Positions 36,162 through 61,897 of a stretch of DNA of 64,000 nucleotides are shown piece after piece (within the stretch, counting starts at the first letter, position 1; every line of letters starts with the position of its first letter). The notes below the pieces were generated by a model. It was not told the DNA's origin. It ran no database searches and saw nothing but the letters and a program-made list of their open reading frames with translations. The DNA lies in IMG/VR virus record IMGVR_UViG_3300035498_000530, positions 32,001 through 96,000 of that record; one strand, written 5' to 3'. Origin of the DNA: a virus (lineage: Duplodnaviria; Caudoviricetes). Both the position numbers and the translations under genes were made by a program.

Positions 36162-36286
36162 ACAAAAAATAAAAAAGGGGTGCCGTAGGATATCTATCCT
36201 ACGGCAAGTTCTTGTAATGAAAAATGACTATAGTTTAAACACTAAATACTTAAACACAAGGAGTATTTATTGCTTTTTACTTCATC
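36162..36286 (-). ncRNA. Candidate late sRNA H (~125 nt)
   Basis: AACT-ATACAA-TG at 36297-36286; no ORF; terminator TGCCGTAGGAT/ATCCTACGGCA 36181-36206; contains anti-SD (complement of AAGGAGTAT). Confidence 0.5.
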
Positions 36287-36314
36287 ATTGTATAGTTAGT
36301 ATTGTAATAATTTA

Positions 36315-37049
36315 TTACACATCTTGTATTTTGATAAGTAAAGACTTTAAGTAGCTTAATGTATCAGCTGCAAAATAGTTATACTTTTCAAATTTAGATT
36401 CAAATAACAAAGAATTTTCATAAAGATGTAAATTATCCAAAGCATTTTCTGGATCATCAATGTTATTTACTCTATAGTTTAAAGATAATAACACATCATG
36501 AAGATATTGTATTAATCTTTTTGCTTCTTCTTTATCTACATTATCAGGAACTCTATGATCAATATTGATCTGTGTATCACTTGTATCTTTTTGCTTAATA
36601 GTAAGCTCGTAATCTTTAAGAAGATCTAATGAATAATTATATAAGAACTCTGTTGCAATATTAAGAATATCGCATATAGGTCCTTCTTTCATATTGCTAC
36701 TATTTAAAGATCCAGAATTTGTCAAATCAATAAATCGCCTAATATATTTATCTTTTTTAGGATCATATTCTTCCATAGATATATTTCTATCAAATTCATG
36801 CTTATCTACTATATACTCATCAAGTTCCCAACCCCTTTTCATAATTTGGTGCATCTCAATATTTGAAATTCTACAAGCATGAATTATAAGATGTATTGCA
36901 TCTACATAACTAAATTTAGAATTCTTTATATACTTATCGTAATCTATAAGTGATACTAATTCATAAACAGATATAATATCTACATCTGTATTCATTGCCT
37001 TCTTCAATATTGAAATTGTTGCTTCTTTAAGTTTCATGTAGTTTTCCAT
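36315..37049 (-). CDS. Hypothetical early protein (paralog of 37049-38722)
   Basis: YDPKKD..IR and DI.NIATE.LY..SL.LLKDYE shared. Confidence 0.65.
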   Translation of the reverse strand: MENYMKLKEATISILKKAMNTDVDIISVYELVSLIDYDKYIKNSKFSYVDAIHLIIHACRISNIEMHQIMKRGWELDEYIVDKHEFDRNISMEEYDPKKDKYIRRFIDLTNSGSLNSSNMKEGPICDILNIATEFLYNYSLDLLKDYELTIKQKDTSDTQINIDHRVPDNVDKEEAKRLIQYLHDVLLSLNYRVNNIDDPENALDNLHLYENSLLFESKFEKYNYFAADTLSYLKSLLIKIQDV

Positions 37050-38722
37050 TATTCATCCTCCTCAATATTCTTTCCCACAGAAGGTGACTTTAAATATCCG
37101 ATTATACTAGATGCAAATGCTGCGCATTGGGCACCTGATAATTCTTTTGCCTTGGTTTCATAAAAATTTAAAAAAGATAAAGTATTTTTTGCATGATGCT
37201 GTACTCCATCTAAAACTTTGTTTACAAATATTAACATGTCTTCAGCATCTTCTTTAATTGATGATTTTATTACTGAATATAATCTTGATTCTATGTTTTT
37301 CTGAATATGCCTTGGTTCTTCAATTCTATTCTTATCTGGCATATAAAGAATACTTATAAAGAATTCATAGTTATCTTTAAGTCTATATTCTAAATCATAC
37401 TTGAAGAGATAGTCTGCTCTCTGTCTTAAAATAAATTTAATAGCAGAATAGTATGTGTCTTTAAAATCATCTAATAATACCATATTGATAAATCGTATAG
37501 ATTTAGATGATTTTAATTCATATATTGATTCTGTTATATCATTTATAAAAATATTTATAAAATGACTATACTTTAATTTTATTAGCTCATCATCTATATT
37601 ATAGACTGGCTTTTTGAAAAATACAGAATCAATATATCCGTTTAATATACAATTGCTAATATAATTAATTCTTTCTCTAAAGAAATCCACGTAATTATCA
37701 ATGATTTTCATAATACCATCATAGTCTTCTTTATATTTATAATCATAGATATAATATTTATTGATAAATTGTCTTTTGACACTATCCATATCAAATTCTG
37801 CTTTAGAATCTTGTGAATCTGTAGAATTATCAGATTTCTCATTATCAGATAACCAATTTTCTTTTTCTGATATTCTCTTAATCATAGATTGAATATCATT
37901 ACAGATATACTTAATCATATTATATAAAGAAATAGCATCTTTATTTTCTAAGCGTGTTCCATCTGGAACTTTTGTTCTACTATAGACATATTCAAATAAA
38001 TCTTTATCTGTTATAAATCTTTTTTCTTTTATACACTTTGAAAGAATTTCGTCTGCTGCCATTATACTACCATATATCATATCAAAAAACAATGTGTCTC
38101 CACCAAAATAAATATTACAGAAAAGCGTTGCTTTACCGCCTGCAAATCTTCTATAATATTCAGCATCTTCAGAATAGCATGAAATGAGATCATCTAATTC
38201 TTCATCTAGTTCTGTATTGCCTTCATAATCTTTAAGAAGATTTAATGAATGATCATATAATAATTCTGTTGCAATATTGATTATATCATCCATAATACTC
38301 CCTATACTAGGAATACTATTAACGCTTACAGTATCAGGAGATTTATTCGTAGATAAGTAATGTCTAATACAATTATCCTTCTTAGGATCATAGTCTTCTT
38401 CTGACTCTTCTTTACAGAAATTATGTCTTGAGCAAATATATTCATAAAGATCTCCATTATGCCTTATAATACTCTGCATTTCTTGCTCTTGCTTACAGCA
38501 ATAAAATGCTACATTAGCTATATTATGACACATAGAAAATCCTATTTCTGATGCAAATAATGGACCTCTAAATATACTCATTTCATCATTATCTGGAGCA
38601 GTAATAGTTGATACATAATCAAATATTCTATCTGCAGCTCTATCTGGTCTACCTTCATTCATTGCGTCTGTTAAAGCTTCCTCCACTTCAACTCTAAGTT
38701 GATCATAGTTATAGTTTTTCAT
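37049..38722 (-). CDS. Hypothetical early protein
   Basis: AAGGAGG RBS; early motif at 38781. Confidence 0.65.
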   Translation of the reverse strand: MKNYNYDQLRVEVEEALTDAMNEGRPDRAADRIFDYVSTITAPDNDEMSIFRGPLFASEIGFSMCHNIANVAFYCCKQEQEMQSIIRHNGDLYEYICSRHNFCKEESEEDYDPKKDNCIRHYLSTNKSPDTVSVNSIPSIGSIMDDIINIATELLYDHSLNLLKDYEGNTELDEELDDLISCYSEDAEYYRRFAGGKATLFCNIYFGGDTLFFDMIYGSIMAADEILSKCIKEKRFITDKDLFEYVYSRTKVPDGTRLENKDAISLYNMIKYICNDIQSMIKRISEKENWLSDNEKSDNSTDSQDSKAEFDMDSVKRQFINKYYIYDYKYKEDYDGIMKIIDNYVDFFRERINYISNCILNGYIDSVFFKKPVYNIDDELIKLKYSHFINIFINDITESIYELKSSKSIRFINMVLLDDFKDTYYSAIKFILRQRADYLFKYDLEYRLKDNYEFFISILYMPDKNRIEEPRHIQKNIESRLYSVIKSSIKEDAEDMLIFVNKVLDGVQHHAKNTLSFLNFYETKAKELSGAQCAAFASSIIGYLKSPSVGKNIEEDE

Positions 38723-38821
38723 TTTCGTTGTCCTCCTTATTGATCTTATAGTGTATTATATAACTTCTGTTATACAGATCTATAATATATAGTCAAAGCA
38801 TATTTAAATTATAAAAAATAA

Positions 38822-38849
38822 AACCCTAGAGCTATTACACTCTAGGGTT
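38822..38849 (-). terminator. Repeated terminator family AACCCTAG(T/A)..CTAGGGTT (copies 38822, 40441, 41766, 43869, 46676; plus-strand use at 60838)
   Basis: Near-identical stem ACCCTAGTAG/CTACTAGGGT with a TTTATTTTT tail. Confidence 0.8.
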
Positions 38850-38888
38850 ATTATTACAATAATATCAAGACTCATGCTTTGAATCTAT

Positions 38889-40322
38889 TCATTCTTTAAC
38901 ATGATTTTTAATATCAATATCTTTATCTGTAGTACTTGATGTTGGATTATTACTTAAGCCAGCCATACTATTATACAAATCCTGTTCAGATGGATCTACT
39001 ACAGGTTTAGGATCACACTTAGGTCCAGTATATGCAGTATTCTGATTAAAACTATATATGGGTGCTCCATAGTTAAGCTGCTGACCATAGTCAAATGGCA
39101 ACTGCTGATAAGGTTTAAATCCTGGATAATACTGCTGCGGCTGACCATACTGCATATGTGGGGTAAACGGATTCCAAGATTCATTCTTACTAGGATCATT
39201 ACTATAGTATTTTCTCTTATCTTCAAGTATAACCCTACAGCATTTATGCACCTCATTCATTATTCTTTCATCAAATAAATACAATAAAAAGTTCTTTTGA
39301 TTACCTGATAATGACTCGTTATCATATATACTATGTCTTATTTCATCGATTTCAAGTACTACACAAGAAAATGCTTCTACCTTGTTATTATGCTGTATAT
39401 TGATACTTGCATACAAATTAACAGAAATATTAAATAATTTATCGAGATATTCACGTAACCATTCAAAGCTACTTTCATTTTTACAATATTCTGAAAATTT
39501 GTTTTCTATATCATCAAATTCTTTTCTGATATAACCAGGTTTATTTAATGATAATACATAACCAATACAGTCATATGCAATAGAATACCTAGATCCGAGC
39601 AAATTAAAAAGAACAAAATCAAATGATATTTTATTATGCAGTTCTTCTATGAATTCATCATACATTTTCAAATTGAAGTACTCTTTAATAATATCAGGAA
39701 TGCATTTTACTAAATATTCAGTAAATAAGATTTGAGTAGACTCTTTATAATCTGCTAAATCTTTCTCTATATTAATAGCAGTATCCATCCTATAATTTAT
39801 ATGATCCATAAAGTATTCAATCCAGTCAGCGCTATAATTGCTGCATGAAAATGGAAAACGACTTTTTAATGCTATGATTCTGTCATTTAATGAACTTTCT
39901 GAAGAGTTTATACTTGTGCATCCATGATGCATAAAATCTATAGCTAAAAGTTTTTCATAATTACGATCATACATAGAATCATATAAACTCATACCAATCA
40001 ATATATCATGATCGTTGAATCTTAATGAAGAATAAGAATAGATTACTGCAGGATCCAATGATACCATATCTTTTATTTTAGATACAATATAATTAAAAAG
40101 ATCATTAACTTTAGCTATTTTCTTATCCTCCAATGTAATTCTACAATATGATTTTCCATTAGAATCTGGTGTATAGAGCAACAAAGCTACATCTTTTGTA
40201 AATTTCTTATAAATGTCTTGATCATTAACAATATTATCAACCGAATATACTACTTGCTTTTGATCTTGATAAATAAAATCACCCATCTCCATTACTTCGT
40301 TTAAAAGTTCTTTTCTAATCAT
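38889..40322 (-). CDS. Hypothetical early protein, helical family, with Q/Y/P-rich tail
   Basis: Conserved leader cassette upstream; IPDII..YF and S.NQK.FLLY shared with 40503-41642. Confidence 0.65.
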   Translation of the reverse strand: MIRKELLNEVMEMGDFIYQDQKQVVYSVDNIVNDQDIYKKFTKDVALLLYTPDSNGKSYCRITLEDKKIAKVNDLFNYIVSKIKDMVSLDPAVIYSYSSLRFNDHDILIGMSLYDSMYDRNYEKLLAIDFMHHGCTSINSSESSLNDRIIALKSRFPFSCSNYSADWIEYFMDHINYRMDTAINIEKDLADYKESTQILFTEYLVKCIPDIIKEYFNLKMYDEFIEELHNKISFDFVLFNLLGSRYSIAYDCIGYVLSLNKPGYIRKEFDDIENKFSEYCKNESSFEWLREYLDKLFNISVNLYASINIQHNNKVEAFSCVVLEIDEIRHSIYDNESLSGNQKNFLLYLFDERIMNEVHKCCRVILEDKRKYYSNDPSKNESWNPFTPHMQYGQPQQYYPGFKPYQQLPFDYGQQLNYGAPIYSFNQNTAYTGPKCDPKPVVDPSEQDLYNSMAGLSNNPTSSTTDKDIDIKNHVKE

Positions 40323-40468
40323 AGTAGTTTCCTTTCTTGTATCTTAGTAGATACCTATGTATTATTATTTAGCTCAACATAATTGCTATATTATTACTAT
40401 TATAATATGTAACCATATGTACTAAGAATAGCAAAAAATAAACCCTAGTAGAATGAACTACTAGGGTT
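40323..40468 (-). repeat. Early-gene cassette repeat, copy 1 (terminator + early motif + structured leader + AGAAAGGA RBS)
   Basis: Minus strand ACATATTATA...AATATAGCAATTATGTTGAGCTAAATAATAATACATAGGTATCTACTAAGATACAAGAAAGGA. Confidence 0.9.
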
Positions 40469-40502
40469 ATTATTAATCAACAACATTAGTGCTTATGATC
40501 AT

Positions 40503-42837: not shown

Positions 42838-42839
42838 AT

Positions 42840-43894: not shown

Positions 43895-43902
43895 ACTTTT
43901 AT

Positions 43903-44334: not shown

Positions 44335-44336
44335 AA

Positions 44337-45360: not shown

Positions 45361-45374
45361 TATTTATTAATCAA

Positions 45375-46700: not shown

Positions 46701-46710
46701 ATTATCTTGT

Positions 46711-50089: not shown

Positions 50090-50145
50090 ATAAATCGACC
50101 TCCATATTTTATATTTATTTTAAAGTTCTTCCAGTATTATATTAT

Positions 50146-50283
50146 TAAACAAAGGAGCGCCCAGTAGACCGATCCTACTGGGCATAATTTGTAACAATAC
50201 ATACAAGAAAGGTTTAATGGAAATCTTATATTCCAACTTATGAAACTTAAGGGACATTTATGGACAATATTTTATTGACCCTC
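50146..50283 (-). ncRNA. Candidate late antisense sRNA C (~138 nt)
   Basis: AACA-TATAAG-TG at 50294-50283; stem GCCCAGTAG/CTACTGGGC 50159-50183; complementary to early-gene RBS/start regions. Confidence 0.6.
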
Positions 50284-50312
50284 ACTTATATGTTATTAGT
50301 TTATAATATTTT

Positions 50313-50591
50313 ACAAAGTGTATCCCGTATGGGGTCATAACTTCCATACGGGATAGGAGAAATTGTATGCATGAACCATGCCATACCTGATACGCATTAA
50401 CCAATGGAATGGAAAATGTGTTTTTGTTGTAAGGTTTAATTTTATCGCAATCTCAGGAACAGAGTAGAATATGATATAGTATTGTGTATTTTTATATTGA
50501 TTTGAGGATTGTTATAAAACATGTATAAAAAGTAACAATAAAATTTTGTAAAATCTTTATACTATATCAATCTTCTGTTATATTAAACCTC
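50313..50591 (-). ncRNA. Candidate late sRNA B (~280 nt)
   Basis: AACA-TATATT-TG at 50602-50591; terminator TATCCCGTATGG/CCATACGGGATA 50321-50355; internal inverted repeats (AGGTTTAAT/ATTAAACCT; TGATATAGTAT/ATACTATATCA). Confidence 0.55.
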
Positions 50592-50620
50592 AAATATATG
50601 TTATTAGTGTATAATTTTTT

Positions 50621-50838
50621 ACAAAAGAAATCCCGTATGGCTCACAGGTACCATACGGGATATATCTAAGGAAAATAAGCAGCAAAATGGCAAGTCAAGT
50701 CGCTTTCCAAAGGGTGCACCTTTATATATTTACAAGGAATTTTTATTGAATAGAAATGTATTAGATTTGTAAAATTAAGTAAATGCTACAATACTACATC
50801 CTTACCGGAAGCAAGTCGGCTATTTTATACTTATCTTC
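50621..50838 (-). ncRNA. Candidate late sRNA A (~218 nt)
   Basis: AACA-TTTATT-TG at 50849-50838; terminator ATCCCGTATGG/CCATACGGGAT 50630-50661 with a TTCTTTTGT tail on minus. Confidence 0.55.
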
Positions 50839-50863
50839 AAATAAATGTTATTCTTGTAATAAA

Positions 50864-53800
50864 TTATTGTAACTTCTTTTCATGAAGCATTGGTTCGTAT
50901 TTAATACCCATTATATCTTTTACAGACCTTGCCAATTCTACAAGAACTTTATTTATACCACCAGATACTTCAATAGAACATACCATTCTACTACTTACTG
51001 AAAGTGTAGATAAGAATAAGTCTATTGGTTCTTCTGGTCTGAATGAACTATATGGTTCTTTTCCTTCTGGGAATATATCTTTACAAACAGCTTTAAGAGC
51101 TGACTGAGTAACAAGCTTATCACCTACAGAGAAGTCATCTTGGTACTTAATGTAAAATTCAATCTTAACACCATCTGAAGTATCCTTTAATTTACCAGTT
51201 GGAGCAAGTTTTTCATCTGAACCAAAGTTTGGAGTTACAGCATAATCATTAACAGATCCTTTAGCTGCTTTCTTTAATTTCTTAACTCCAGATTCATAAG
51301 AATTACATATCTTCTTCAATGAAGGAGATAATTCTTCTGTATCTACAGTTCTATATACTTTAATATCTTGTACAATACCGGTATTCTTAGACTTTATAGG
51401 AATTCTACCGATATCTGATACTATTTCTTCATCATCAGAAAGTTGTTTAAGAAGAGCATTCATATCATCTTCATCAAATGTATTCTGGAATAATATGAGT
51501 GTTTCGCCTTCCTGAATATTCTGTCCTTTCTTTACCATAGATAATACATTTGTCGTCTTAGGTAAAGTTACTTCTTTCTTTACTACTACATCTGAAGACA
51601 ATGCTTTAGATAACCATGGTGATACAATACCAGAGTCTTCATAACCTTCATCTGTAGTTATAATAGCTACTTTAGCAAGAGTACCTATCTTATATCCTAT
51701 ACTATTAGGATTTCCTATTTCATTGGAATATGATGATTTATCATATGCTAATATCTGATTTGGTTTTACTTTAGATCCTTTCTTTAAGTCAGAATCTAAC
51801 TTAAGAGTTACATAGAAACCACCATCAGAGTTCTTTTCAACTCTTTCTCTAAGATCTATAAACTCTGTTGTATTATTATTATATTTCACTTTAAGATATT
51901 CTGGAGTTGCTTCTATTACTTCTCCAGCACCTTTAGCCTTATGAGCAAATATATCTGTAGTCAAATATGGTAATGCTTCGTCTGCACCATTGGTAATCAA
52001 TGCAGGAGAAGATTTTCTAACTCTCATACCATGTTTTGCTGTCTGTACAAATGTCATAGCAGATCTAAATGGATCATCATGCGTAGTACCAAATGGAGTA
52101 AGTGCTTCTGTCATACACATAGATTTAACACTACCCATATCTTCTTTAGATCCAGATTTTAAATATCCTCTACTATTACCAACACCCATATCTATAGTAG
52201 CCTGTCTAGTAATACCTACATTGCCAGCAAAACCAGTAGACATAGCTAATACATTTGTCATTGAATCGTCAAACGTACGTTTATCAAGACCATAGCTTCT
52301 TTCTGAGTTCATACCAGATAATCCCTTAAAGGTTACTGCATTAGAAGTCTCTATTTCAAGAAGTGGTGTAAGAATAGATGCATCTGCCATCGTAGGATCA
52401 AGCATTACAAGATCTATTACAGCAGACTGTTTCATAGTCATAGGAGCTTTTTTAGTTCTCTTTAATTGATTTCTATAAGCACCATATGATTGTGCTAAAG
52501 CTTTATATACATAACCAGCAACAATTTCATTCTTTCTAAATCTATTACCAGATATATCTACATGCTTATTATATTTATTATCAGTAAGTAATCCATTAGC
52601 ATAAGCCAATGCTGTTACATAATCTGACGGTAAATCAAAGTCTTTACATACAGATACCGTTATAGGATCCATCATCAAATCATAGAAGTTATCAAGACCA
52701 TCTGCTTTAATTCTTCCACCAAAGTTATCTAACTGTTCTACCCATGTAGATTTCTTATTAAGATCTGCTATACTCATTTCATTAGTATCACATATTCTAA
52801 GACCATTCATAAGAAGATCTGCACTTGCTGTTGATTCATAATATAATAAACCATCTTTAAATTTGATTTTATCATACATACTAGTTTCAAAGTCAGGATT
52901 CTTCTTTTCAAAAAGTCTATAATTTATATTAGCTTTATTAAGAGCTGATACCAATCCTTCAGCATGAGCCATAACTACTATAGTTGGTATCTTTGAATCA
53001 AGAATACTACAAACTGAATAAGCACAGTTGCTTGGTGCTGAAGTATCATCATAATCTCTTTGGAATTCTTCGCTAGATTGACATAATAAGTTAACTAAAT
53101 ATGTTGAGAATCTATCTCCAGATTCTTGACCAAAATATAATAACTTACTATTCTCTTTAGTGTAAACAACTGGAATACCATATTTTAAATCATACTTATA
53201 ATTCTTTCTGATCTCATCTTGGTTAAGATATATAATAAAATCTTTAGTTTCAATTTTACTAAATGCTCTTCCTATATCTACATAATCCATTGGAAGATCG
53301 TATTTAATAGATATCTTTTCTGTATTACCTTCGGTAGCATCAATATCTTTATATCTATTCTTTGTAAGAAGCTTAATTACTTTATTAGCAGCTACATTAG
53401 ATTTACCAACAGAATTATTTTGTATCTGCAAGAAAATCTTATTATAGTTTGATACAATTTGGCATACATCTGGGTCTGTTTTTATTATTGGTAATAATAA
53501 TAATTGACCCTGGATTGATTTTAGGTTGCCTCTGAGCCTCATAAACTGATTGTCTACGAACAGTGGAACGTCAAATTTGAGCTTGAAGCGCTGTCCAAGT
53601 GCATCTTCACAGTCAAGTGTCCAAGTCTCTATTAAATCCTCAGATGTGGATGTATTTTGTACATCCATAGATCTAACCACTACAGGTATAGTTTTATCTT
53701 TAAAGCTATTTATAATCTTTACAATATCTTCATTTATATCATAAGTCTCATTAAATTTAGCATAACTAAGATGTTTCCATTCTTCATTAATACTATCCAC

Positions 53801-55363
53801 AGGAACAGAAGTTTCTTTAATCTCTTTAGGTTTATCTTCTTCAAGATAATCTTTTACTGTTTTATTATGGACTTTAATATTATCAAAAGATTTACCTACT
53901 TCAGATAATCTCTTACTTCGAGCAGCATTTATCTTAATAGTATTTTCTTCATCTTCTGATACTGTATCCATAATTTTAGATATATATTCATTATTAGATA
54001 ATTTATCTACAGCATCTTCTACAGAATTACTAGAATTAGCCACAGCTTTAATATTATCCAATAATTCTTCCTTAAGTTCATCAGATATTTCTTTCTTAGC
54101 TTTAGTTTCATTCTTATTAATATTTGTAGTTTTTTCTGGTCTTGCTTTCTTTACACTTGTTTGCTTTTTATTATCTGGAGACATAGAAAGTACTGATATT
54201 TCTTTTGGCTTAATTGTTCCAGATTTACCAGTAAGTCCTTTATACTTAATTGGTCTTTCATTATTTTCAAGACTATCAGTAATAGTTGCAATAATAACTT
54301 TTGGAGAATCTGTATCTGGGTCTCCTAAATCATCTGTATTTGCATCTTTTGCTATTACTCTTTTTATAAGATTAATGAACTTTATAGATTTAGTTTTATC
54401 AAAGTCTTTAAAATCCATCTTAAAGTAATTATTTTCTCCTACGAAGATTATATTAAATCCTTTAAGGGTTTCTTGGACATGTTCTGGATATCTATAAGCC
54501 ATTCTTATTATAACTGATACTGGATTAATAGTTTTCTTATAATCCCACATATTACCATTCTTAATATTCCAATCCAATATAGGAATAAATATAGTTTTAT
54601 GTGTATATCCATATTGATCATATCTGCCATCATTAAGAAGTCTTATCATAAAATCATAATAAAGCTGTACAGCTTTGTCAGCTTTCCAGAAATTATTCTT
54701 AAAGAATGCTTCAGTATAATATGATAAATCAGCAAATAAGTTAAGTCCTTTATATAATTTAAGATTACTAAAAGTCTTCATTATAAATGGACATTCAGCT
54801 TTAACCTCTTTGTATATATCAAATACATTCTTATTAGTTTTAAGTCTTTCATTATATAATAACTTTCTTAATTGTGTATCATTCTTACCGTCTTCGGTTA
54901 AATATGCATCTCTAAATATAGTAATAGCATTTCTTCCTCTGAGATATTCATCTGTCATTTCACAATCTTTAGATATAAATGTAGGTCTATAATCTATATC
55001 TTCATTTACAGATTCTACATTATTTATTATATCTGAATTATATAATAAATCTTCAACAGATTCTTCTAATTCTACCGATTCAGAATCTGGATATAATATA
55101 TTATATCTATTATCTACTGGAGCAGATTCCTGTAGATAATTCTTACTGTTTATATAATAAGTAACATCTTTATCAAGATAGTAAGCCTGATAAGATTTTG
55201 CTCTATTTATAAACATTGGATTTTTCATAAGATTAATACTAGATTTAAAATTTGGAGTCAATAAGTAAATCATAGCACCATGTTTCTTATCATTCTCGTT
55301 TATTGGTAATAAGCATTTCTTCTTAAGTAATTTATTTGGAATTACTTCATCTAAAAATAGCAT
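50864..55363 (-). CDS. rpoB: Phage multisubunit RNA polymerase beta subunit (large part) with N-terminal extension
   Basis: NVGITRQ, PFGTTHDDPFRSAM..Q..H, GYEDS, GDKL....KAV, SVSSRM; ends shortly after SRM, so the extreme beta C-terminus is absent; late motif AACT-ATAAAA-TA at 55399-55388. Confidence 0.92.
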   Translation of the reverse strand: MLFLDEVIPNKLLKKKCLLPINENDKKHGAMIYLLTPNFKSSINLMKNPMFINRAKSYQAYYLDKDVTYYINSKNYLQESAPVDNRYNILYPDSESVELEESVEDLLYNSDIINNVESVNEDIDYRPTFISKDCEMTDEYLRGRNAITIFRDAYLTEDGKNDTQLRKLLYNERLKTNKNVFDIYKEVKAECPFIMKTFSNLKLYKGLNLFADLSYYTEAFFKNNFWKADKAVQLYYDFMIRLLNDGRYDQYGYTHKTIFIPILDWNIKNGNMWDYKKTINPVSVIIRMAYRYPEHVQETLKGFNIIFVGENNYFKMDFKDFDKTKSIKFINLIKRVIAKDANTDDLGDPDTDSPKVIIATITDSLENNERPIKYKGLTGKSGTIKPKEISVLSMSPDNKKQTSVKKARPEKTTNINKNETKAKKEISDELKEELLDNIKAVANSSNSVEDAVDKLSNNEYISKIMDTVSEDEENTIKINAARSKRLSEVGKSFDNIKVHNKTVKDYLEEDKPKEIKETSVPVDSINEEWKHLSYAKFNETYDINEDIVKIINSFKDKTIPVVVRSMDVQNTSTSEDLIETWTLDCEDALGQRFKLKFDVPLFVDNQFMRLRGNLKSIQGQLLLLPIIKTDPDVCQIVSNYNKIFLQIQNNSVGKSNVAANKVIKLLTKNRYKDIDATEGNTEKISIKYDLPMDYVDIGRAFSKIETKDFIIYLNQDEIRKNYKYDLKYGIPVVYTKENSKLLYFGQESGDRFSTYLVNLLCQSSEEFQRDYDDTSAPSNCAYSVCSILDSKIPTIVVMAHAEGLVSALNKANINYRLFEKKNPDFETSMYDKIKFKDGLLYYESTASADLLMNGLRICDTNEMSIADLNKKSTWVEQLDNFGGRIKADGLDNFYDLMMDPITVSVCKDFDLPSDYVTALAYANGLLTDNKYNKHVDISGNRFRKNEIVAGYVYKALAQSYGAYRNQLKRTKKAPMTMKQSAVIDLVMLDPTMADASILTPLLEIETSNAVTFKGLSGMNSERSYGLDKRTFDDSMTNVLAMSTGFAGNVGITRQATIDMGVGNSRGYLKSGSKEDMGSVKSMCMTEALTPFGTTHDDPFRSAMTFVQTAKHGMRVRKSSPALITNGADEALPYLTTDIFAHKAKGAGEVIEATPEYLKVKYNNNTTEFIDLRERVEKNSDGGFYVTLKLDSDLKKGSKVKPNQILAYDKSSYSNEIGNPNSIGYKIGTLAKVAIITTDEGYEDSGIVSPWLSKALSSDVVVKKEVTLPKTTNVLSMVKKGQNIQEGETLILFQNTFDEDDMNALLKQLSDDEEIVSDIGRIPIKSKNTGIVQDIKVYRTVDTEELSPSLKKICNSYESGVKKLKKAAKGSVNDYAVTPNFGSDEKLAPTGKLKDTSDGVKIEFYIKYQDDFSVGDKLVTQSALKAVCKDIFPEGKEPYSSFRPEEPIDLFLSTLSVSSRMVCSIEVSGGINKVLVELARSVKDIMGIKYEPMLHEKKLQ

Positions 55364-55406
55364 ATACTTACCTCCTTTAATTTATCTTATTTTATAGTTC
55401 AATTTG

Positions 55407-55774
55407 CAAAAAAGGATGAGATAGGCATTTCTGCCTATCTCATAGAGGTGTTCATTTAGGTTAAATAATATATATCATATCATAGTCAGTGTCTGGAACA
55501 TTGTGTGCGATTGTCTATATTATTTTAATTTTTCGGAGGTTAACTTTTGTAATTGAAAGCAATTCGTGAAATTTTTAGTTATTGCACCGAAAGCGTTGTT
55601 ATATTTTGGCATTTATTGTTTGTTTTTATTTAACCTAAATGTGAAAAATGTCTATAGATTATATTTATCTCAATTATATATCTATCTTTTGTGCATTATT
55701 TATAAATACTACATAATTGTGTACGCAGGTTTTAAAAGGAAACTTTGTAGTATCTGATCCTATATAATCTATTT
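55407..55774 (-). ncRNA. Candidate late structured ncRNA D (~368 nt)
   Basis: AACA-TCTAAT-TA at 55785-55774; terminator ATGAGATAGGCA/TGCCTATCTCAT 55416-55443; perfect 16-bp long-range stem 55453-55468/55626-55641. Confidence 0.55.
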
Positions 55775-55810
55775 AATTAGATGTTAAGTTTGGAATTATC
55801 AGATTTGGTT

Positions 55811-56077
55811 TTCCCTCTCTCCCCCCTTACACCCCCCTCTCTCTCTTTCCATCTTAATTTTTATTATACTATATTATGCCTCATTGGACTTTTACTATAT
55901 TATTTTATCCTTCTCTCTTTTATACGTTTATTTCTTAAGTATTATTATTTTATTACCAATTGGTATATTACTATCTGCTCGCTCGGCGCTCGCTTTAGGG
56001 TTTTCTTTTTCTATACCTATTGGGCTCTCTACTGTTTGATTTTACCCCCCTACCCCCCATGGTAACTTTTTACCATG
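55811..56077. other. Candidate replication origin / G-tract element
   Basis: C6-TTACA-C6 (55821-55837) and C6-TA-C6 (56045-56058) flank a pyrimidine-skewed stretch with three GCTCG repeats; near the switch in gene orientation. Confidence 0.4.
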
Positions 56078-56205
56078 AGGAGTAATGAGTGATTTGCTAT
56101 CCAAAAACTGGTACCAATATAGATACTATAGCCCCTATGGAATCTATCTTTGAAATATACGGTAGGTCTCCAGTCCAACACAATAGCCAGTCCGTCGCTC
56201 TCTAT
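56058..56205 (-). ncRNA. Candidate late transcript E reading into the G-tracts
   Basis: AACT-AAAAAG-TA at 56216-56205; hairpin CATGGTAA/TTACCATG followed by G6-TA-G6 instead of a U-tract. Confidence 0.4.
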
Positions 56206-56235
56206 ACTTTTTAGTTATGTACTAAGTATTTTTTT

Positions 56236-56434
56236 ACAAAAGAGGACCAGGTAGTCCGAGTGACTACCTGGATTTTTTGGATGTTTGAGATCCACATTTT
56301 GGCTGAGTGTGTTAATTTGTGTTTCTCTTTGTTGACATGAACTAAGAAAGGAACAAACCTTGATGTGCGTAAACAAGTGAAAATTACATTCCGAGAAGGT
56401 ACTTTTAAATAGCAATCATATAATAATCCCTTGT
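56236..56434 (-). ncRNA. Candidate late sRNA F (~200 nt)
   Basis: AACA-TTATAA-TA at 56445-56434; terminator CCAGGTAGTC/GACTACCTGG 56247-56271; complement of TAAGAAAGGA at 56343-56352. Confidence 0.5.
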
Positions 56435-56456
56435 ATTATAATGTTATGTACTGTAT

Positions 56457-56967
56457 AAAATAAAACCCGAAGGATTTTTATTATCCTTCGGGCATAATAT
56501 TATTGATTGCTGAAATAATTGTTATTGTTAGCATAGAACTATGCTTGTATAAATATAATTTTACTTATTATTTTTCCGCATATTAAATTACTATAGTTAT
56601 AATCTGCTGTCTCGCACGAAATATAGGTACTATTATATAGTAGTATTTCATATAAGCGTTTTTGTTATTCACACTAAATAAAGCAATTAATATTTTTGTT
56701 TTTGTTTTTGAAAGTTACTGTTAATTGGGGACAAAAACCCTTGCTATGTCTTTGCTTTATAATAGTAGTTATGAGTAATAACATGTGAGTGTTTTTTATG
56801 TTTTTACGCATAGTTTCAGCAATAAATATTATGGATACTTGATACTTTGACTATAGATTTATGACGTTCCCCTCTTTGAAAATGATTGAACTTACTTAGT
56901 TCTTTAGTGTAATTACTTTATGAGATTGCTAAATCACAATTTTTTCGGTCAAATTATTTTTATACCT
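56457..56967 (-). ncRNA. Candidate late structured ncRNA G (~510 nt)
   Basis: AACA-ATATAG-TA at 56978-56967; terminator CCCGAAGGAT/ATCCTTCGGG 56466-56492; long-range stem 56493-56515/56814-56833. Confidence 0.55.
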
Positions 56968-57072
56968 ACTATATTGTTAAGATACATATTAAAATATAAA
57001 TATATATTATAAACCTGTAATGTAATAAATATATATTACAAAAACTATACAATAAGAAAGAGGTGATCTAAA

Positions 57073-57192
57073 TTGACTAAGAAGGACTTTTTAGACATAA
57101 TAACAACTTATGACCCGAAAGAACTAAATGATCTAATCAAAGAGAAGGGTAAAAAGCCTAAAATCATAACCCCAATTATATTCTTTGATTGA
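57073..57192 (+). CDS. 39-aa early protein, absent from the ORF track
   Basis: AAAGAGGTG RBS, TTG start; MTKKDFLDIITTYDPKELNDLIKEKGKKPKIITPIIFFD; early motif at 57001. Confidence 0.65.
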   Translation: MTKKDFLDIITTYDPKELNDLIKEKGKKPKIITPIIFFD

Positions 57193-57237
57193 TATATAGA
57201 TCAAGAGAGGGTAAATAATAGAAAGGAAAGATAACTT

Positions 57238-57516
57238 ATGAAATCAAAAATTAATAAAACAGTACTTACAGCTGAAGAATATGTAATGTTTATTACTGAA
57301 AAATCTCATACTCTTAATACCAAAGAGGATGATGAAATTCAGATAGAAAAAATTTTAAACGATGAAGGATATGATATATGGTCTTATCCTTTAGATGAAG
57401 TTGACGAGGCTATGGAAAATAATGATCATATTGCTCTTGTTAAGCTTAATCATTATAGGAATGGTAAAGTCAGCTATTCTGAACATAGATGGTACGAGGT
57501 ACCAATATTAGACTAA
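57238..57516 (+). CDS. Hypothetical early protein
   Basis: AGAAAGGA RBS. Confidence 0.6.
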   Translation: MKSKINKTVLTAEEYVMFITEKSHTLNTKEDDEIQIEKILNDEGYDIWSYPLDEVDEAMENNDHIALVKLNHYRNGKVSYSEHRWYEVPILD

Positions 57517-57539
57517 TATTTACTTAAAGGAGAAAACAC

Positions 57540-57836
57540 ATGAAAAGAAATATAGATTATAATAGAATAAAAAAGAGTCATGTCATTTTTAATGACATCA
57601 AAGGAAACGAATATGAAGGAGAATTTACTTCAGAAAGAGTAGAAAGAACAACAGTTCCAGAAGGATTATATACCTATGAATGTAGGCATAATGATGATGG
57701 ATATGTTGATGTTCCTGCAACTATTGAAGACAAAGTCTTTGTAAACTTCTGTGGAACTTTCTTTACAGATAAGAAAGTGTATTTCCCAGATAAGATGGAC
57801 CATTGTATTGTAATAGACAAAATAAACTACAAGTAA
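57540..57836 (+). CDS. LPD28 (large polyvalent protein-associated domain 28) protein
   Basis: FT..RV.R.TVPEGLY.YE.RH.DD...PATIE..V.VNF.GT signature. Confidence 0.75.
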   Translation: MKRNIDYNRIKKSHVIFNDIKGNEYEGEFTSERVERTTVPEGLYTYECRHNDDGYVDVPATIEDKVFVNFCGTFFTDKKVYFPDKMDHCIVIDKINYK

Positions 57837-57904
57837 GAAAACTATCCCCTAAGGAATTTACTATGTTCCTTAGGGAGTTTTATATATCATAGGAGGAATT
57901 AATT

Positions 57905-59107
57905 ATGAAAAAGAGAATTGCAAAATACGATTCCGATCAAATGGAGCAAATCCGTTTGGGATTGGAAGATGGTCTGGATGTAAGTTGGTATGCTGATCCA
58001 AGATATGATAGCGAGCAAATGAATCGTATAAGAACTGGTCTTAAAGAAAATTTGTATGTAAAATGGTATGCAAATCCAGATTTTAACAAAATGCAAATGA
58101 GAGAAATCATGATAGGACTTAGAAATGGTTTAGATGTAAAATGGTATGCTAAACCAGAGTTTAACCAATATCAGATGGAACAGATAAGATATGGACTTGA
58201 AGAAGGACTCGATCCAAAATATTATGCTGATCCTGCATATAAGCCATATCAAATAAAACAGATCATTCTCGGATTAAAATCCAAGGTTGATGTTTCTATA
58301 TATTCAGAGATCATTGAGGTTGAAGAAGAGGAAGATAAAGAAGAAAATAATACTTCTAATCCTTATTATGCTGGTATAGCTTTATTTGGAAATTCAGAAA
58401 ATAAATCTAATGATAAGAATGAACTTTTTACTTTTGATTCTGATAATAAGAATATTGTTAATATATATAAAGGAAAGGGGGTTATAGAAGATATATGTCC
58501 CGATTTCGATATTAATATAAATGATATTATTAATAAAAATCCAGAAGATTTAACAGATGATGAAAGATCTGTATTATTGGATATTAACTTATTTAGTAAT
58601 CGTAGTAGATATCTTGATGGAGACGATTCTTTTTATCTTGATATTAAGAGAATTATTCATGAGCGATTTGGAATTGAAGATTCTGATGATTATATCCATC
58701 AGATGATTAAAATATCTAGTTTATCTGAAGAGTCAGAAGAAGATGAAGAATATGAATCTAGTGAAAAAGATTATGAAGAATCTAATGAAGATAATTCTTC
58801 ATCTGAAGACGAAGATGCTGATGATACTTCAACTACAAAAGAGTCTCCTATAAAGAAAGTATTATCTTTCTTATCAAGAGGTGCATATAACGAAGATCAA
58901 TTACATCAGATTAATTTAGGAAAAGAGCATGGAGTTGATACTTATGTATATTCTGATCCAAGACTTAATGCTAAGCAAATGAAACAGATAAGAAAAGGAT
59001 TAGAAGATGGACTTGATGTATCACTATACGCAAAAACTTGGGTTGATCATAAGTACATGAAGAAAATGAGAAAGAAACTTAAGAAAGTGCAGAAATTTTT
59101 TGAATAA
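57905..59107 (+). CDS. Tandem 25-aa repeat protein (QM.QIR.GLE.GLDV..YA.P)
   Basis: About five N-terminal and two C-terminal repeats separated by an acidic insert. Confidence 0.7.
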   Translation: MKKRIAKYDSDQMEQIRLGLEDGLDVSWYADPRYDSEQMNRIRTGLKENLYVKWYANPDFNKMQMREIMIGLRNGLDVKWYAKPEFNQYQMEQIRYGLEEGLDPKYYADPAYKPYQIKQIILGLKSKVDVSIYSEIIEVEEEEDKEENNTSNPYYAGIALFGNSENKSNDKNELFTFDSDNKNIVNIYKGKGVIEDICPDFDININDIINKNPEDLTDDERSVLLDINLFSNRSRYLDGDDSFYLDIKRIIHERFGIEDSDDYIHQMIKISSLSEESEEDEEYESSEKDYEESNEDNSSSEDEDADDTSTTKESPIKKVLSFLSRGAYNEDQLHQINLGKEHGVDTYVYSDPRLNAKQMKQIRKGLEDGLDVSLYAKTWVDHKYMKKMRKKLKKVQKFFE

Positions 59108-59138
59108 TATGATTTTTATATAAGAAAGGAAGATTATT

Positions 59139-59966
59139 ATGGACAATACATTGAAAACATTTTATGCAGAAATAGGTACAGACGATTATATATATTCTGT
59201 ATCTCAATCAAAAGAGAAAGTATTAGCAGAAGCATTAAAAGAAAAGGGTCATTTTAAAGGAAGAGTTGCAAGGATTATAAGTATGCAACTTCCAGAAAGA
59301 GATATATATTATCAACCTATGTTAAATGTAACTCTCAATGATGGTGAACTTTTATATCAAATTTGTGAAAATGAAATTATAGATTCATGGGAAGATGCAG
59401 TAAAAAGATCTCATGAATTATATATTAAATATAATTCTAAAATTGATAAAGATTATACATTAGAAGAAGCAGTTTCTTATATGGAAGAATTAGAACCTGG
59501 TAGTGGGCTTTATATGGTTAATTTTGATGATCCTGAAAAGGTAATTAGAATAATAAGTTCATCTGAAAGAGGATGTGATATGAAATTAGGTAAGTTTTTA
59601 ACTGTAAAATTAAATGGAAAAACAATAGAGCCAATTACTTTATCTAATTTAAAGAAACGCATTGAGTCTATTAATAAAGAATCTAGAGATGATATTTCTA
59701 TAGGAATATCATATACTGTAGACCTTTTGCCAGAGGCAAAGTATAATGCCGATCAATTAAGAAAAATATTCTATGGTATTGAAAACGGTGTCGATATATC
59801 TAAATATTATGATCCAGAATTTGATGCTGATCAAATGGCTCAAATATATTTAGGCTTACAACATGGTATAGACTTATCGGTTTTAGGGCATGACTGTGAT
59901 TATACTAAAATGGAAAATATCAGGCTTCAGTTAGAAAAATTGTTAGAAAAGAAATCAGAAGAATAA
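59139..59966 (+). CDS. Fusion of SESKE domain and QM.QI..GL repeats
   Basis: SQSKEKVL...LPERDIYYQ at the N-terminus; YDPEFDADQMAQIYLGL at the C-terminus. Confidence 0.65.
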   Translation: MDNTLKTFYAEIGTDDYIYSVSQSKEKVLAEALKEKGHFKGRVARIISMQLPERDIYYQPMLNVTLNDGELLYQICENEIIDSWEDAVKRSHELYIKYNSKIDKDYTLEEAVSYMEELEPGSGLYMVNFDDPEKVIRIISSSERGCDMKLGKFLTVKLNGKTIEPITLSNLKKRIESINKESRDDISIGISYTVDLLPEAKYNADQLRKIFYGIENGVDISKYYDPEFDADQMAQIYLGLQHGIDLSVLGHDCDYTKMENIRLQLEKLLEKKSEE

Positions 59967-60056
59967 ATAATTATTAAGGGCTACCAATTTGGTAGCCTTA
60001 TATTTTTTGCTACTAAGGACATTATATTAAAAATACTAAAGGAGTATAATAAAATT

Positions 60057-60440
60057 ATGAATAAGAAAAAGAAGAGAGAATTTATAAATGGTCTTGATAA
60101 GTTAGATAATGAATTGAATGATAAGATTAGCTCTATAGACAATAATGTCAGAATTATGACTCCAGAAGGAATCAATAATCAGCTTAATAAATTATCTATA
60201 GTAGAATTAGAGTATTATGCTAATAAGCTTATAGCACATGCCGATGATGATACTATAGGAAAAATATTTAATTATCTTCAAGATACATTTAATATAGGAA
60301 ACAAAGAATTTGATGTCATATGCCCTAAGAAGGATAAGAGAGAGTTAATGGATTTTACTTTAGCTTGGTTTAAGAGTAGAAACGGAGAATCCATAAAACT
60401 TCTTATACTTAAATTTAAGGCATTAGAAGCAGTAGCATAA
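60057..60440 (+). CDS. Hypothetical protein
   Basis: AAGGAG RBS; upstream hairpin near 59976-60000. Confidence 0.55.
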   Translation: MNKKKKREFINGLDKLDNELNDKISSIDNNVRIMTPEGINNQLNKLSIVELEYYANKLIAHADDDTIGKIFNYLQDTFNIGNKEFDVICPKKDKRELMDFTLAWFKSRNGESIKLLILKFKALEAVA

Positions 60441-60455
60441 GAAAGGATAATTAAT

Positions 60456-60830
60456 ATGAAAGAGAAACAAAAATTTTATGTTTTAATAGATGATGATCAT
60501 GTTATTATAAATATATCAAAAAATAAGGATCTTATTTCTAGCTTGGTAAAAGAAGAGGAAGGTAAACGTTTACAAGAATGGAATATTGAAGAAGAAGATT
60601 ACTATTACCAGCCTGTATATTCTGAAACTTATACTGATAATAATTTGGAAGAAGAATATATCTACGGAGGTAAGATCTGTTCAACAAAGAAAGAAGCAAT
60701 AGAAGATTATCATCGATTATATACTAGCTATTATGAGAATGAAGATAATTCATGTGGATTCATTAATTTTATTTCTAAAGAAACTGATGGTGATGAATTA
60801 TATAAAGTCTTATATAGTGAATTTGTATAA
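60456..60830 (+). CDS. SESKE-domain family protein (divergent)
   Basis: ISKNKDLI...YYQP.YSE...ICSTKKEA; AGAAAGGA RBS. Confidence 0.6.
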   Translation: MKEKQKFYVLIDDDHVIINISKNKDLISSLVKEEEGKRLQEWNIEEEDYYYQPVYSETYTDNNLEEEYIYGGKICSTKKEAIEDYHRLYTSYYENEDNSCGFINFISKETDGDELYKVLYSEFV

Positions 60831-60943
60831 ACAGAGTACCCTAGTAGTATGAACTACTAGGGTTTATTTTTTGTATAATAGTAATTTTATCAATATATTA
60901 TAACTATGTATTAAATATATTTATCTTAAGGAGGATAATAAAA

Positions 60944-61474
60944 ATGGAAAATGTAAAAGACCTTATAAAGGATATCCATGATAATTTAAAACAAGCTTCA
61001 GCTTCTTCTAAGGATGAAGTTAAAGTTATGAAAGCTATGCTTAATGACAAAGACTTTACTGTAGATATCTATGGTAAAGATGGTAAGGTTGGAGAATATA
61101 ATCCATCTTCAGAAGTAAGATCTGCTATTGGTGGTATCATTGCTTCAACAACTAAGATTACTAAGACAGAAGCAGAAGGAATGATTGGCAATTATGAATT
61201 TAAGAATTCAGAAGCTGAAGCATTCGTTAATCTGTCTAAGGAGTATGTAAATACTTATCTTGATACAGGTAGAAAACTTTCACTTGGTTCAAGAAAAGAA
61301 TCAGACATCTCTCTTCTTAGAAAGGAAGAGAAAGAAGGATATGTATCATATCCTAAGAAGATTGGTGAAAAAGATGGTGTTGCTATTTATGATAAAGGCA
61401 AGACATTTGTTCCGGCACATAAAGGCATCAAAGTTATTTCACCTTGTCCAGAACATTTAAGATCAGATAAGTAA
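60944..61474 (+). CDS. Putative HU/IHF-like DNA-binding protein (divergent)
   Basis: C-terminal half EAFV...L..G.KLSL...RKE.KEG..P...FVPAHK.IKV parallels HU; own early motif and terminator. Confidence 0.4.
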   Translation: MENVKDLIKDIHDNLKQASASSKDEVKVMKAMLNDKDFTVDIYGKDGKVGEYNPSSEVRSAIGGIIASTTKITKTEAEGMIGNYEFKNSEAEAFVNLSKEYVNTYLDTGRKLSLGSRKESDISLLRKEEKEGYVSYPKKIGEKDGVAIYDKGKTFVPAHKGIKVISPCPEHLRSDK

Positions 61475-61477
61475 TAA

Positions 61478-61711
61478 AAACAAAGGGTTTCCCCATAGGA
61501 TTACGGTCCTATGGGGAATTTTATTTTTTGTGGTAGTATTTTTATTTTTTCGCAAATTTAATGAAAGGAAATTTTATTTTATGATCTTCGAATTAAGGAC
61601 TGCACCACAAAAAATAATTTTGTCGTCATCTGTTAACAACTTAATTTAATCAGGAGAAATTTCCAATGATGAACATACGAAAATACGGCTAACTAAATTC
61701 ATACATCCATT
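61478..61711 (-). ncRNA. Candidate late sRNA I (~234 nt)
   Basis: AACT-ATTATA-TA at 61722-61711; shares bidirectional terminator TTCCCCATAGGA/TCCTATGGGGAA 61489-61518; 14-bp stem 61521-61534/61604-61617. Confidence 0.5.
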
Positions 61712-61897
61712 ATATAATAGTTATGTTGTAATTTGTTTATTTTTTCAATTCTCAGAGTATTACCATAGGTATAATTAGAGCATTTCCATACATTTTATTA
61801 CTGCCAACATATTAGTAAATCACATATAAAAGGAGGATAGAATCCATTCTAGATAACTAATAAAATTATAAATATTGAAGAAAGGAGGACATATGAT

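Follow-up and report, generated by a model that had tools for sequence, protein, structure and literature searches.

Several open reading frame-free units predicted behind late promoters around an RNA polymerase gene of an uncultured AR9/PBS1-like jumbo phage are probably a mixed set of small or structured RNAs

In jumbo phages with their own RNA polymerases (RNAPs), the post-transcriptional timing of gene expression is little understood, and the small RNAs (sRNAs) of phiKZ-like phages are so far without targets. The late promoters of phage AR9 follow the consensus AACA-N6-TA/G, with the start site at the last base, and seven of them, mapped by differential RNA sequencing (dRNA-seq), drive antisense transcription (Lavysh et al. 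2017, PMC5312081). In phage 201phi2-1, 11 sRNAs (3 intergenic) and 10 transcription units free of coding sequence were found, one of the units being conserved in phiKZ, EL, and PA3 (PMC11512511). Here, we analyze a stretch of 64,000 nucleotides (the window) from the IMG/VR record IMGVR_UViG_3300035498_000530, of which it forms bases 32001 to 96000; an earlier note had singled out nine minus-strand sites (here U1 to U9) at which an AR9-type late promoter motif precedes DNA without an evident open reading frame (ORF), most of them in two stretches on either side of an RNAP gene. As predicted from the sequence, about five of these sites mark credible late non-coding units, and three or four are weak sites or plain 3′ untranslated regions (UTRs). 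Several of the ORF-free units are predicted to be small or structured RNAs and probably form a mixed set: two or three look like antisense regulators, two like larger structured RNAs, and one like a conserved G-tract element. The reading that we favor, with moderate confidence, is that heterogeneous late ORF-free cassettes flank the RNAP gene and encode putative non-coding RNAs of mixed functions.

The locus resembles AR9 in its late consensus and in that late promoters appear to drive RNAs other than the mRNA of the downstream gene; however, the AR9 cases are cis-antisense or internal, whereas the units described here are stand-alone, ORF-free, terminator-bounded cassettes around one gene, predicted from sequence, and the source genome uses the TA ending almost exclusively. 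With 201phi2-1 and phiKZ the source phage shares the jumbo genome, the multisubunit RNAPs, and short ORF-less promoter-to-terminator RNAs, but those phages belong to another clade with Gram-negative hosts and show no sequence relation to the units here, and their RNAs, mostly derived from 5′ UTRs and without proposed targets, were seen experimentally, whereas ours are predicted. In view of these sRNAs (PMC11512511) and of the AR9 antisense promoters (PMC5312081), the previous statement that no described equivalent is known from phiKZ/AR9-like phages was too strong. What is new here is the clustering around the RNAP gene, the explicit complementarities to early leaders and start regions, and the conserved single-copy G-tract unit.

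The source phage is an uncultured AR9/PBS1-like jumbo phage with a genome of 222,731 bp, ~29% GC, and direct terminal repeats. The minus-strand ORF at 50864-55363 (1,499 amino acids) matches PHROG families of phage RNAP beta subunits (E=7e-134), and its nearest cultured homologues, at 29 to 32% identity, are those of Listeria phage LPJP1, Bacillus phages of the PBS1/AR9 type, Staphylococcus S6-type phages, and Yersinia phiR1-37. By a simple gene call, 93% of the genome is coding; its largest ORF-free stretches, 50090-50863 (774 nt) and 55364-57237 (1,874 nt), enclose the RNAP gene, and the remaining gaps are accounted for by small ORFs led by a Shine-Dalgarno (SD) sequence or by ordinary terminator-promoter-SD junctions. 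In a simple ORF listing, the stretch 55364-57237 holds solely SD-less, junk-like frames. Reading TAG, TGA, or TAA as sense opens no gap, here or in the relatives described below, and a tblastn search with all of the phage's own proteins and the relatives' ORFs detected no protein remnant in the gaps below E=0.004. Searches with Rfam and ARAGORN, which took in ROOL, GOLLD, 6S, group I/II introns, riboswitches, and tRNA/tmRNA, gave no match, either at gathering score over the full window or at E≤1 over 50.0-57.3 kb, nor did Rfam match the loci of three relatives. Because AAGGAGG is the top-enriched intergenic 7-mer of this genome, the absence of SD-led ORFs from the units is meaningful.

All nine minus-strand motif instances are present at their positions. 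The loose pattern AACW-N6-TR, with 651 matches on both strands compared with ~430 per strand in dinucleotide shuffles, is rarer than expected in the genome; in the four gaps concerned it has 13 minus-strand matches versus 7.2±2.5 expected (1.8-fold, P=0.025), and further minus-strand matches, at 50579, 55452, and 56793, had not been mentioned previously. The loose pattern is nearly uninformative here and too loose for promoter calling. It is now replaced by a genome-specific model, a matrix trained on 43 gene-proximal instances that lie 30 to 50 nt before start codons, nearly all SD-led (training median, 12.7 bits; minimum, 5.7 bits). Their consensus, AAC(A/t)T-N-WA-N-TAA at 34 to 44 nt before SD-led starts, bears out the claim that this genome uses an AR9-type late promoter. 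All 43 training promoters end in TA and none in TG, which is why the four TG-ending sites (U9, U2, U1, and U3, in ascending order) score only 3.3 to 9.2 bits. On this scale, sequence supports an AR9-type late promoter at 50294, 55785, 56216, 56445, and 56978; the sites at 36297, 50602, and 50849 are unconvincing as promoters, and the site at 61722 is borderline (Table 1). The minus strand of the gaps carries 7 matches of at least 9 bits, compared with 1.13±1.0 in shuffles, and the plus strand carries 2; two of the seven are true gene promoters (tmk and the RNAP gene). Genome-wide, matches of at least 9 bits are ~20-fold denser in non-coding than in coding DNA. We also observed that the hexamer ATTACA precedes the AAC core by 4 to 8 nt at the weakest three sites (window 36308, 50860, and 61732, minus strand) and at four true gene promoters, with 10 of 26 such patterns in non-coding DNA; judged by this distribution, it may be an upstream promoter element.

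Intrinsic terminators had been reported for eight of the nine units; seven are clear, with ΔG values of –15.9 to –19.8 and T-rich tails, whereas the eighth, at 50352-50323, is weak and has a poor U-tract. Terminator-like sites number 10 in 49.9-57.4 kb versus 2.1 expected. Elsewhere in the genome, terminators lie 5 to 40 nt past a same-strand stop codon, whereas in these gaps they lie 120 to 745 nt from any gene. The absence of SD-led ORFs holds throughout, with no minus-strand SD-led frame of more than 14 codons in any unit, as does the head-to-tail stacking, the next motif following 17 to 31 nt past each internal terminator. In a whole-genome scan, the matrix matches 97 sites at 9 bits or more; at 12 of these, a terminator comes before any SD-led ORF, and 50294, 55785, 56445, 56978, and one site at genome position ~12.5 kb (U10 in Table 1) are the clean orphans. 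The search for ORF-less promoter-terminator units thus returned essentially these plus one other. The same layout of promoter, RNA, and terminator is found at a tRNA gene at 140.6-140.7 kb on the minus strand (window numbering is continued beyond its ends), which serves as an internal positive control. This tRNA-like gene, at 140560-140760 (minus strand), reads GGTTCACTAGCTCAGTCGGTAGAGC..., with the promoter AACAATATATTA and a terminator of its own.

It is highly improbable that the gaps encode overlooked small proteins, either from minus-strand frames of 40 to 66 codons (50257-50120, 50404-50282, 56415-56215, and 56811-56674) or from plus-strand micro-ORFs of 5 to 22 codons, although SD-plus-start look-alikes are enriched on the plus strand and real SD-led ORFs of 39 to 50 amino acids occur elsewhere in the genome. 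SDs are near universal in this genome, yet none precedes any of the minus-strand frames, one of which crosses a terminator; the plus-strand frames have 1 to 22 codons, mostly with TTG starts, and no upstream plus-strand promoter; and the translations resemble composition-driven junk.

The idea of a single nine-member family was not borne out, for the sole sequence shared by the units is one duplicated junction. The terminator-promoter junctions of U2 and U3 are copies of each other (D1, 63 nt at 83%; D2, 24 nt at 79%; spacing, 308 nt) with unrelated bodies, and no direct repeats were found in 55.3-57.3 kb. The internal structure that had been ascribed to most units was detected in the bodies of U1, U2, U4, and U7 (z values of –2.3 to –3.0 versus shuffles, stronger on the minus strand). 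In U4, a long closing helix (inverted repeat I4) joins 56832-56814 with 56515-56497, and the fold reaches z –4.25 at full length with the terminator and –2.8 for the body; Rfam gave no match. U7 immediately precedes the promoter of the RNAP beta gene itself (55399) and contains a perfect 16-bp stem (inverted repeat I5) of 55641-55626 with 55468-55453; it folds with z –4.2 at full length with the terminator, both closing stems being kept in the centroid, and with –2.3 for the body. For both U4 and U7, a larger structured candidate RNA is the best explanation of the modeled folds. Clusters of words complementary to the SD sequence (anti-SD) number 3 in U7 versus 0.8 expected, 3 in U1 versus 0.9 expected, and 3 in U8 versus 0.5 expected. 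The motif of U1 begins 15 nt past the RNAP stop codon (gene end, 50864), and its body folds with z –2.5 in minus-strand and –0.6 in plus-strand sense; U1 is most simply a long structured 3′ UTR plus the terminator of the RNAP beta gene. Likewise, the U9 motif begins 18 nt past a stop codon, and the next gene's true promoter, at 36144, scores 15.8 bits and is followed by an SD; by its sequence U9 is the 3′ UTR and terminator of the gene at 36315-37049, not a separate unit. U2, in which the hairpin 50352-50323 copies the stem at 50661 (body z, –3.0), and U8 (z, –1.8) are doubtful as units.

Table 1. Positions of the candidate units and of other features named in the text (window numbering unless stated otherwise; a minus sign before a position marks DNA upstream of the window)
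Feature	Coordinates	Strand	Promoter motif (matrix score)	Body, predicted RNA, or context	Terminator
U1	50622..50849	-	50849-50838, TG-type (5.5 bits)	~177-nt body	50661-50630, strong
U2	50315..50602	-	50602-50591, TG-type (4.4 bits)	239-nt body	hairpin 50352-50323
U3	50147..50294	-	50294-50283 (9.2 bits)	~137-nt predicted RNA 50283-50147	50184-50158
U4	56455..56978	-	56978-56967, late (10.7 bits)	~510-nt ORF-free predicted RNA 56967-56455	56493-56465
U5	56237..56445	-	56445-56434, late (12.0 bits)	~200-nt predicted RNA 56434-56237	56271-56247
U6	55786..56216	-	56216-56205 (9.5 bits)	G6-N-G6 motifs	none of its own
U7	55408..55785	-	55785-55774, late (12.9 bits)	~367-nt two-domain predicted RNA 55774-55408	55443-55416
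U8	61489..61722	-	61722-61711 (7.9 bits)	antisense, between two plus-strand genes	61518-61489, bidirectional
U9	36170..36297	-	36297 (3.3 bits)	~80 nt; 3′ of gene 36315-37049	36206-36181
U10	genome 12533-12650 = window -19467..-19350	+	14.0 bits	~115-nt ORF-free predicted RNA	present
Plus-strand site opposite U6	55741..56271	+	55741-55753, promoter-like (11.1 bits)		plus face of bidirectional terminator 56247-56271
Early 5′ module	38857-38720	-
Early 5′ module	40475-40319	-
Early 5′ module	41795-41636	-
Early 5′ module	43900-43745	-
Early 5′ module	45366-45212	-
Early 5′ module	46707-46547	-
Early 5′ module	47379-47249	-
G-tract locus of LPJP1	MZ422438 75618-76670 (L151:4732-5784)
G-tract locus of L003	L003:15079-15360
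G-tract locus of L007	L007:12015-11885

The earlier note had seen the opposite strand as studded with look-alikes of ribosome-binding sites with start codons, so that the RNAs would carry tracts complementary to SD and AUG. Both features are enriched: the plus strand of the units holds 10 such look-alikes versus 2.7±1.6, and the RNA-sense bodies, with terminators removed, hold 14 anti-SD clusters of 5-mers versus 5.7±2.1. Per kilobase, there are 6.4 anti-SD clusters in unit bodies and 2.0 in coding sense strands, and SD-like words are depleted. Targets were sought among 177 gene start regions by helix scans and mismatch-tolerant scans, each against shuffles, plus cofolding; folding of full duplexes was set aside for this purpose, since it gave unrealistic full-length duplexes. 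By contiguous-helix scores, no unit beats shuffles. The mismatch-tolerant scan gave P values of 0.033 for U3, 0.047 for U9, 0.087 for U5, and 0.17 to 0.93 for the other six.

Of the nine units, U3 alone is convincing in this respect; its predicted pairing concerns a defined gene class. Seven early 5′ modules of the window (Table 1) are built alike from a terminator, the early promoter TATATATTATAG, a leader with two hairpins, AAGAAAGGA as the SD, and a start that reads ATGGAA; they are paralogous (alignment A1; nhmmer E values of 1e-20 to 4e-40), and the genes behind them have no PHROG matches and are otherwise unannotated. Early genes use the SD variant AAGAAAGGA, and late genes use AAGGAGG. 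The U3 segment 50223-50193, UUUCCAU..CCUUUCUU.G.UAUGUAUUGUU, runs colinear and antisense to three parts of the seven early leaders, namely an upstream box, the SD (AAGAAAGG), and the start AUGGAA, and cofolding with five of the seven gave changes in free energy (ΔΔG) of –14 to –22 kcal/mol with z values of –2.1 to –4.9. At 56352-56344, U5 contains UCCUUUCUU, which is exactly complementary to the early-class 9-mer SD AAGAAAGGA; the latter has 14 copies in the window versus 1.2 expected, of which 11 are true SDs and one lies on the plus strand inside U5. Outside the window, U10, whose terminator tail resembles that of U3, is antisense at 24 of 25 positions to the SD and AUG of a gene for 265 amino acids at genome 17599-18396 (minus strand; locus L149:5599-6396), which lies 5.8 kb away inside a late operon; this complementarity clearly exceeds chance (genome-wide blastn E=0.001, scan z 4.4, cofold z –4.0). 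On sequence grounds, antisense control of start regions is thus plausible in two or three cases, while the other units offer no support for it. These are concrete pairs for testing: U3, perhaps U5, with the seven early leaders, and U10 with one late-operon gene.

Short RNAs that pair with ribosome-binding sites in trans have precedents. The c4 antisense RNA of phages P1 and P7 is processed from the operon that it controls and serves immunity, and RsaE/RoxS are C/U-rich sRNAs with UCCC loops, encoded by Gram-positive hosts. U3, U5, and U10 likewise carry contiguous anti-SD/anti-AUG tracts; the units here differ in that they would be made by a phage RNAP from late promoters and would act on a paralogous set of early leaders, and in that their pairing is predicted.

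That all nine units form one dedicated late regulon of trans-acting sRNAs, masking SD and AUG on early mRNAs of the phage or on host mRNAs, seems improbable to us. The excess of anti-SD clusters and of SD-plus-start look-alikes, the match of U3 to the early leaders, the SD complement in U5, and the antisense match of U10 all speak for such a regulon. However, its supposed members have no common sequence, and U1, U2, U4, U6, U7, and U8 show no complementarity beyond shuffles; moreover, two of the sites (36297 and 50849) belong to 3′ UTRs, two others (50602 and 61722) are weak promoters, U4 and U7 (370 to 510 nt, structured) are unlike seed-type sRNAs, and U6 is a separate conserved G-tract element.

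Under the reading that we favor, a cassette would consist of a late promoter of the non-virion-RNAP type, 100 to 510 nt without an ORF, and an intrinsic terminator, arrayed on the minus strand in both ORF-free stretches and giving rise to non-coding RNAs late in infection. U3, perhaps with U5, would act as a small antisense RNA whose CU-rich segment covers both SD and AUG in the class of early genes that use the SD AAGAAAGGA, so that early genes would be shut off translationally at the late stage; U10, elsewhere in the genome, would act likewise on another gene. U4 (~510 nt) and U7 (~370 nt) would be larger structured RNAs, U6 would be a conserved G-tract element, present once per genome and read from a late promoter, U1 and U9 would be ordinary 3′ UTRs, and U2 and U8 are doubtful. 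From features that are directly observed, namely motifs, terminators, the absence of ORFs, their statistics, complementarity, and the conservation of G-tract and layout, we infer both that the units are transcribed and what they do. A bolder version, in which a Firmicute-infecting AR9-like clade silences the early class (AAGAAAGGA plus AUG) by antisense RNAs of the late RNAP and also uses a G-tract RNA or R-loop as a replication or genome-level signal, is a tentative proposal that we think rather unlikely as a whole.

A number of results weigh against the reading that we favor. The promoter matrix has an information content of only ~10.6 bits, and some unit sites end in TG, unlike any of the 43 gene promoters. 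The bodies of U3, U5, U6, and U9 fold no better than shuffles (z ~0 for U5). The proposed action in trans on start regions found support in the complementarity of U3 and perhaps U5, but seven of the nine units have no start-region complementarity beyond chance, and Fisher combination of the nine P values gives only ~0.045. The complementarity of U3 and U5, as a matter of sequence, could be left over from a gene start that was duplicated in inverted orientation, rather than a pairing kept by selection; when the plus strand of U3 was searched with nhmmer, no leader homology was found. In protein-anchored scans, no contig of the viral or metagenome collections exceeded 47% RNAP identity. Finally, in the two related genomes L006 and L007 the ORF-free region is conserved at 0.67 to 0.90, compared with 0.88 at third codon positions of the RNAP gene.

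Next to the same gene, relatives with RNAPs of 41 to 47% identity show orphan late promoters along with terminators and DNA without ORFs, and neither blastn against cultured phages nor an exact-pattern scan of viral contigs found closer ones. Except for the G-runs, the gap sequences do not align to the relatives' loci. In L003-type genomes, a 14.5-bit orphan promoter 97 nt past the RNAP stop codon is followed by ~170 nt of CU-rich ORF-free DNA and then a terminator, and in L006/L007-type genomes the RNAP gene is followed by ~1.8 kb of repeat-rich DNA that holds several terminators but no ORF. L007 has a 1,277-codon minus-strand ORF upstream of its RNAP gene, and the only ORF-free gap there is the ~1.8-kb one downstream. 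The ORF-free DNA at L007:11145-13328 and L006:11127-12942 contains perfect duplications of 475 and 137 nt, as well as three ~100-nt tandem units, each with an opposite-strand terminator, whose copy number varies between these 90%-identical genomes.

The duplicated junctions of the source phage are reminiscent of the PeSL (promoter-early stem-loop) cassettes of T4-type phages, which are terminator-promoter junction modules (Arbiol et al. 2010, PMC2839356). Common to both are repeated terminator-plus-promoter junctions around variable payloads and duplicated junctions with unrelated bodies; PeSLs, however, have early promoters of the host sigma70 type and border genes for small proteins, whereas the junctions here have phage late promoters (early ones for the seven leaders) and payloads without ORFs. 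The comparison bears on a further explanation, namely that PeSL-like modules shuffle genes and that the units are decayed or empty cassettes whose payload genes were lost and whose transcripts are functionless by-products. The duplicated U2/U3 junctions with their unrelated bodies, the near-identical terminator-promoter-leader modules of the seven early genes, and the plus strand of U3 and U5, which resembles a gene-start stub with SD, ATG, and only 5 to 8 codons, are all in keeping with decay. So is the L006/L007 ORF-free region, which changes about as fast as synonymous sites and shows indels and differing copy numbers; in a constraint test on L006, L007, and L014, it was no more conserved than third codon positions. 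We nevertheless regard decay as possible but on the unlikely side, in that the gaps hold no detectable protein remnant, a 93%-coding genome retains 2.6 kb of such DNA, relatives at 41 to 47% identity retain ORF-free promoter-bearing DNA beside the same gene, U4 and U7 contain perfect or near-perfect long-range helices, and the stubs point away from any plus-strand promoter.

The site at 56216 did not hold up as a member of a common set; U6 is a separate, conserved G-tract element. It carries G6-TA-G6 at 56058-56045 and G6-TGTAA-G6-AGAGA-G3 at 55837-55813, two pairs 210 nt apart that are the only G6 runs and G6-N-G6 motifs of the genome. The relatives at 41 to 47% RNAP identity each have exactly one G5-N(1-6)-G5 cluster in 216 to 253 kb. 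This cluster is always located near the RNAP homologue, in DNA without ORFs, and follows an orphan late promoter of the same strand by 80 to 250 nt. Such a single-copy cluster behind an orphan late promoter was found in the uncultured phages L003, L006, and L007 and in the cultured Listeria phage LPJP1, and none was found in PBS1, which also has no equivalent gaps. The tracts read G5-A-G5-TTTTTA-G5-A-G5 in L003 and G5-AT-G6-TCTTA-G6-TA-G7 in L007. In LPJP1, the sole cluster, G6-TT-G6, lies in a 1-kb ORF-free divergent gap just upstream of the RNAP homologue, ~280 nt past AACATATTAATA and on the strand of that gene, a layout like that of the source phage. By the sequence rule for G-quadruplexes (four closely spaced G-tracts of at least 3 on one strand, with loops of at most 7), L003 and L007 qualify, whereas the source phage has split tracts and LPJP1 only the G6-TT-G6. 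We also noted that the G-tract clusters of these jumbo phages are followed by very AT-rich DNA and that GGACT-like words recur in the 5′ part in the source phage and LPJP1. Judging from the sequence, U6 may represent a G-rich RNA or, alternatively, a DNA element coupled to transcription, for instance an R-loop origin; because the element is present in the cultured LPJP1, which is engineerable and has already been engineered (PMC8460666), a function at the RNA or the replication level is directly testable.

Transcription-primed origins offer a parallel to such an element. In mitochondrial conserved sequence block II (CSBII), runs of the G6-A-G8 type halt transcription and prime replication, and T4 oriF and oriG and the T7 primary origin are likewise transcription-primed. 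Here too, a promoter would fire into a G-run in RNA sense, followed by AT-rich DNA, once per genome, but the source phage splits its four G-tracts into two pairs, and the element may equally act as RNA. An explanation along these lines, for the 55.4-57.2 kb gap at least, is that it is cis-acting DNA, a transcription-primed replication origin with an R-loop or G-quadruplex, in which promoters and terminators provide priming and insulation instead of RNA products. The likeness to CSBII and the T4/T7 origins suggests this, as do the single-copy G-tract, which in five genomes lies in transcript sense between a late promoter and very AT-rich DNA, and the position of the gap at the main divergence, between a 26-gene leftward and a 30-kb rightward block. 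GC skew was rejected as an origin signal: it tracks the gene strand (coding-strand skew, +0.17) and therefore gives no independent indication. The gap contains no iterons or direct repeats, the G-tracts of L003 and L007 are not at a strand switch, PBS1 is without the element, and U1 to U3, U4, U5, and U7 would be left unexplained, so that we hold an origin to be a doubtful account of the gap, with little chance of being correct. On the plus strand opposite U6, the promoter-like site and the plus face of the bidirectional terminator (ΔG –16.1, tail ATTTTTTGG; Table 1) might delimit a C-rich transcript antisense to U6, which is possible from the sequence; the 94-codon frame in this interval has no SD and a junk-like sequence.

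Further features of the genome were observed. On the plus strand, a single ORF of 7,033 codons occupies 61898-82999; Pfam and PHROG gave no match for the first 700 residues of its product. It is preceded by a late promoter at 61806 (14.5 bits) and by a leader of 92 nt in which two boxes resemble SDs. A putative early promoter of the virion-RNAP type, TTATATATTATAA, occurs for example at window 57003 (plus), 19717 (minus), and 92821 (plus) and resembles the AR9 early consensus AAATATATATTAT; 16 of the 25 copies of TATATTATAA fall in the 7% of the genome that is non-coding. An intergenic repeat of ~55 nt, TTGTAAAAgtaggtattattagttGTATATTATAActgtgaataagatacatgta, is present in three copies, at window -31864, 23428 (minus), and 164458 (plus), one of them near the genome end, and each copy holds an early-promoter-like box. 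At 57003-57192 (plus), the early-type promoter at 57003 is followed by an SD-led, TTG-start ORF of 39 codons (57073-57192), which is probably a real small early protein overlooked by simple ORF lists.

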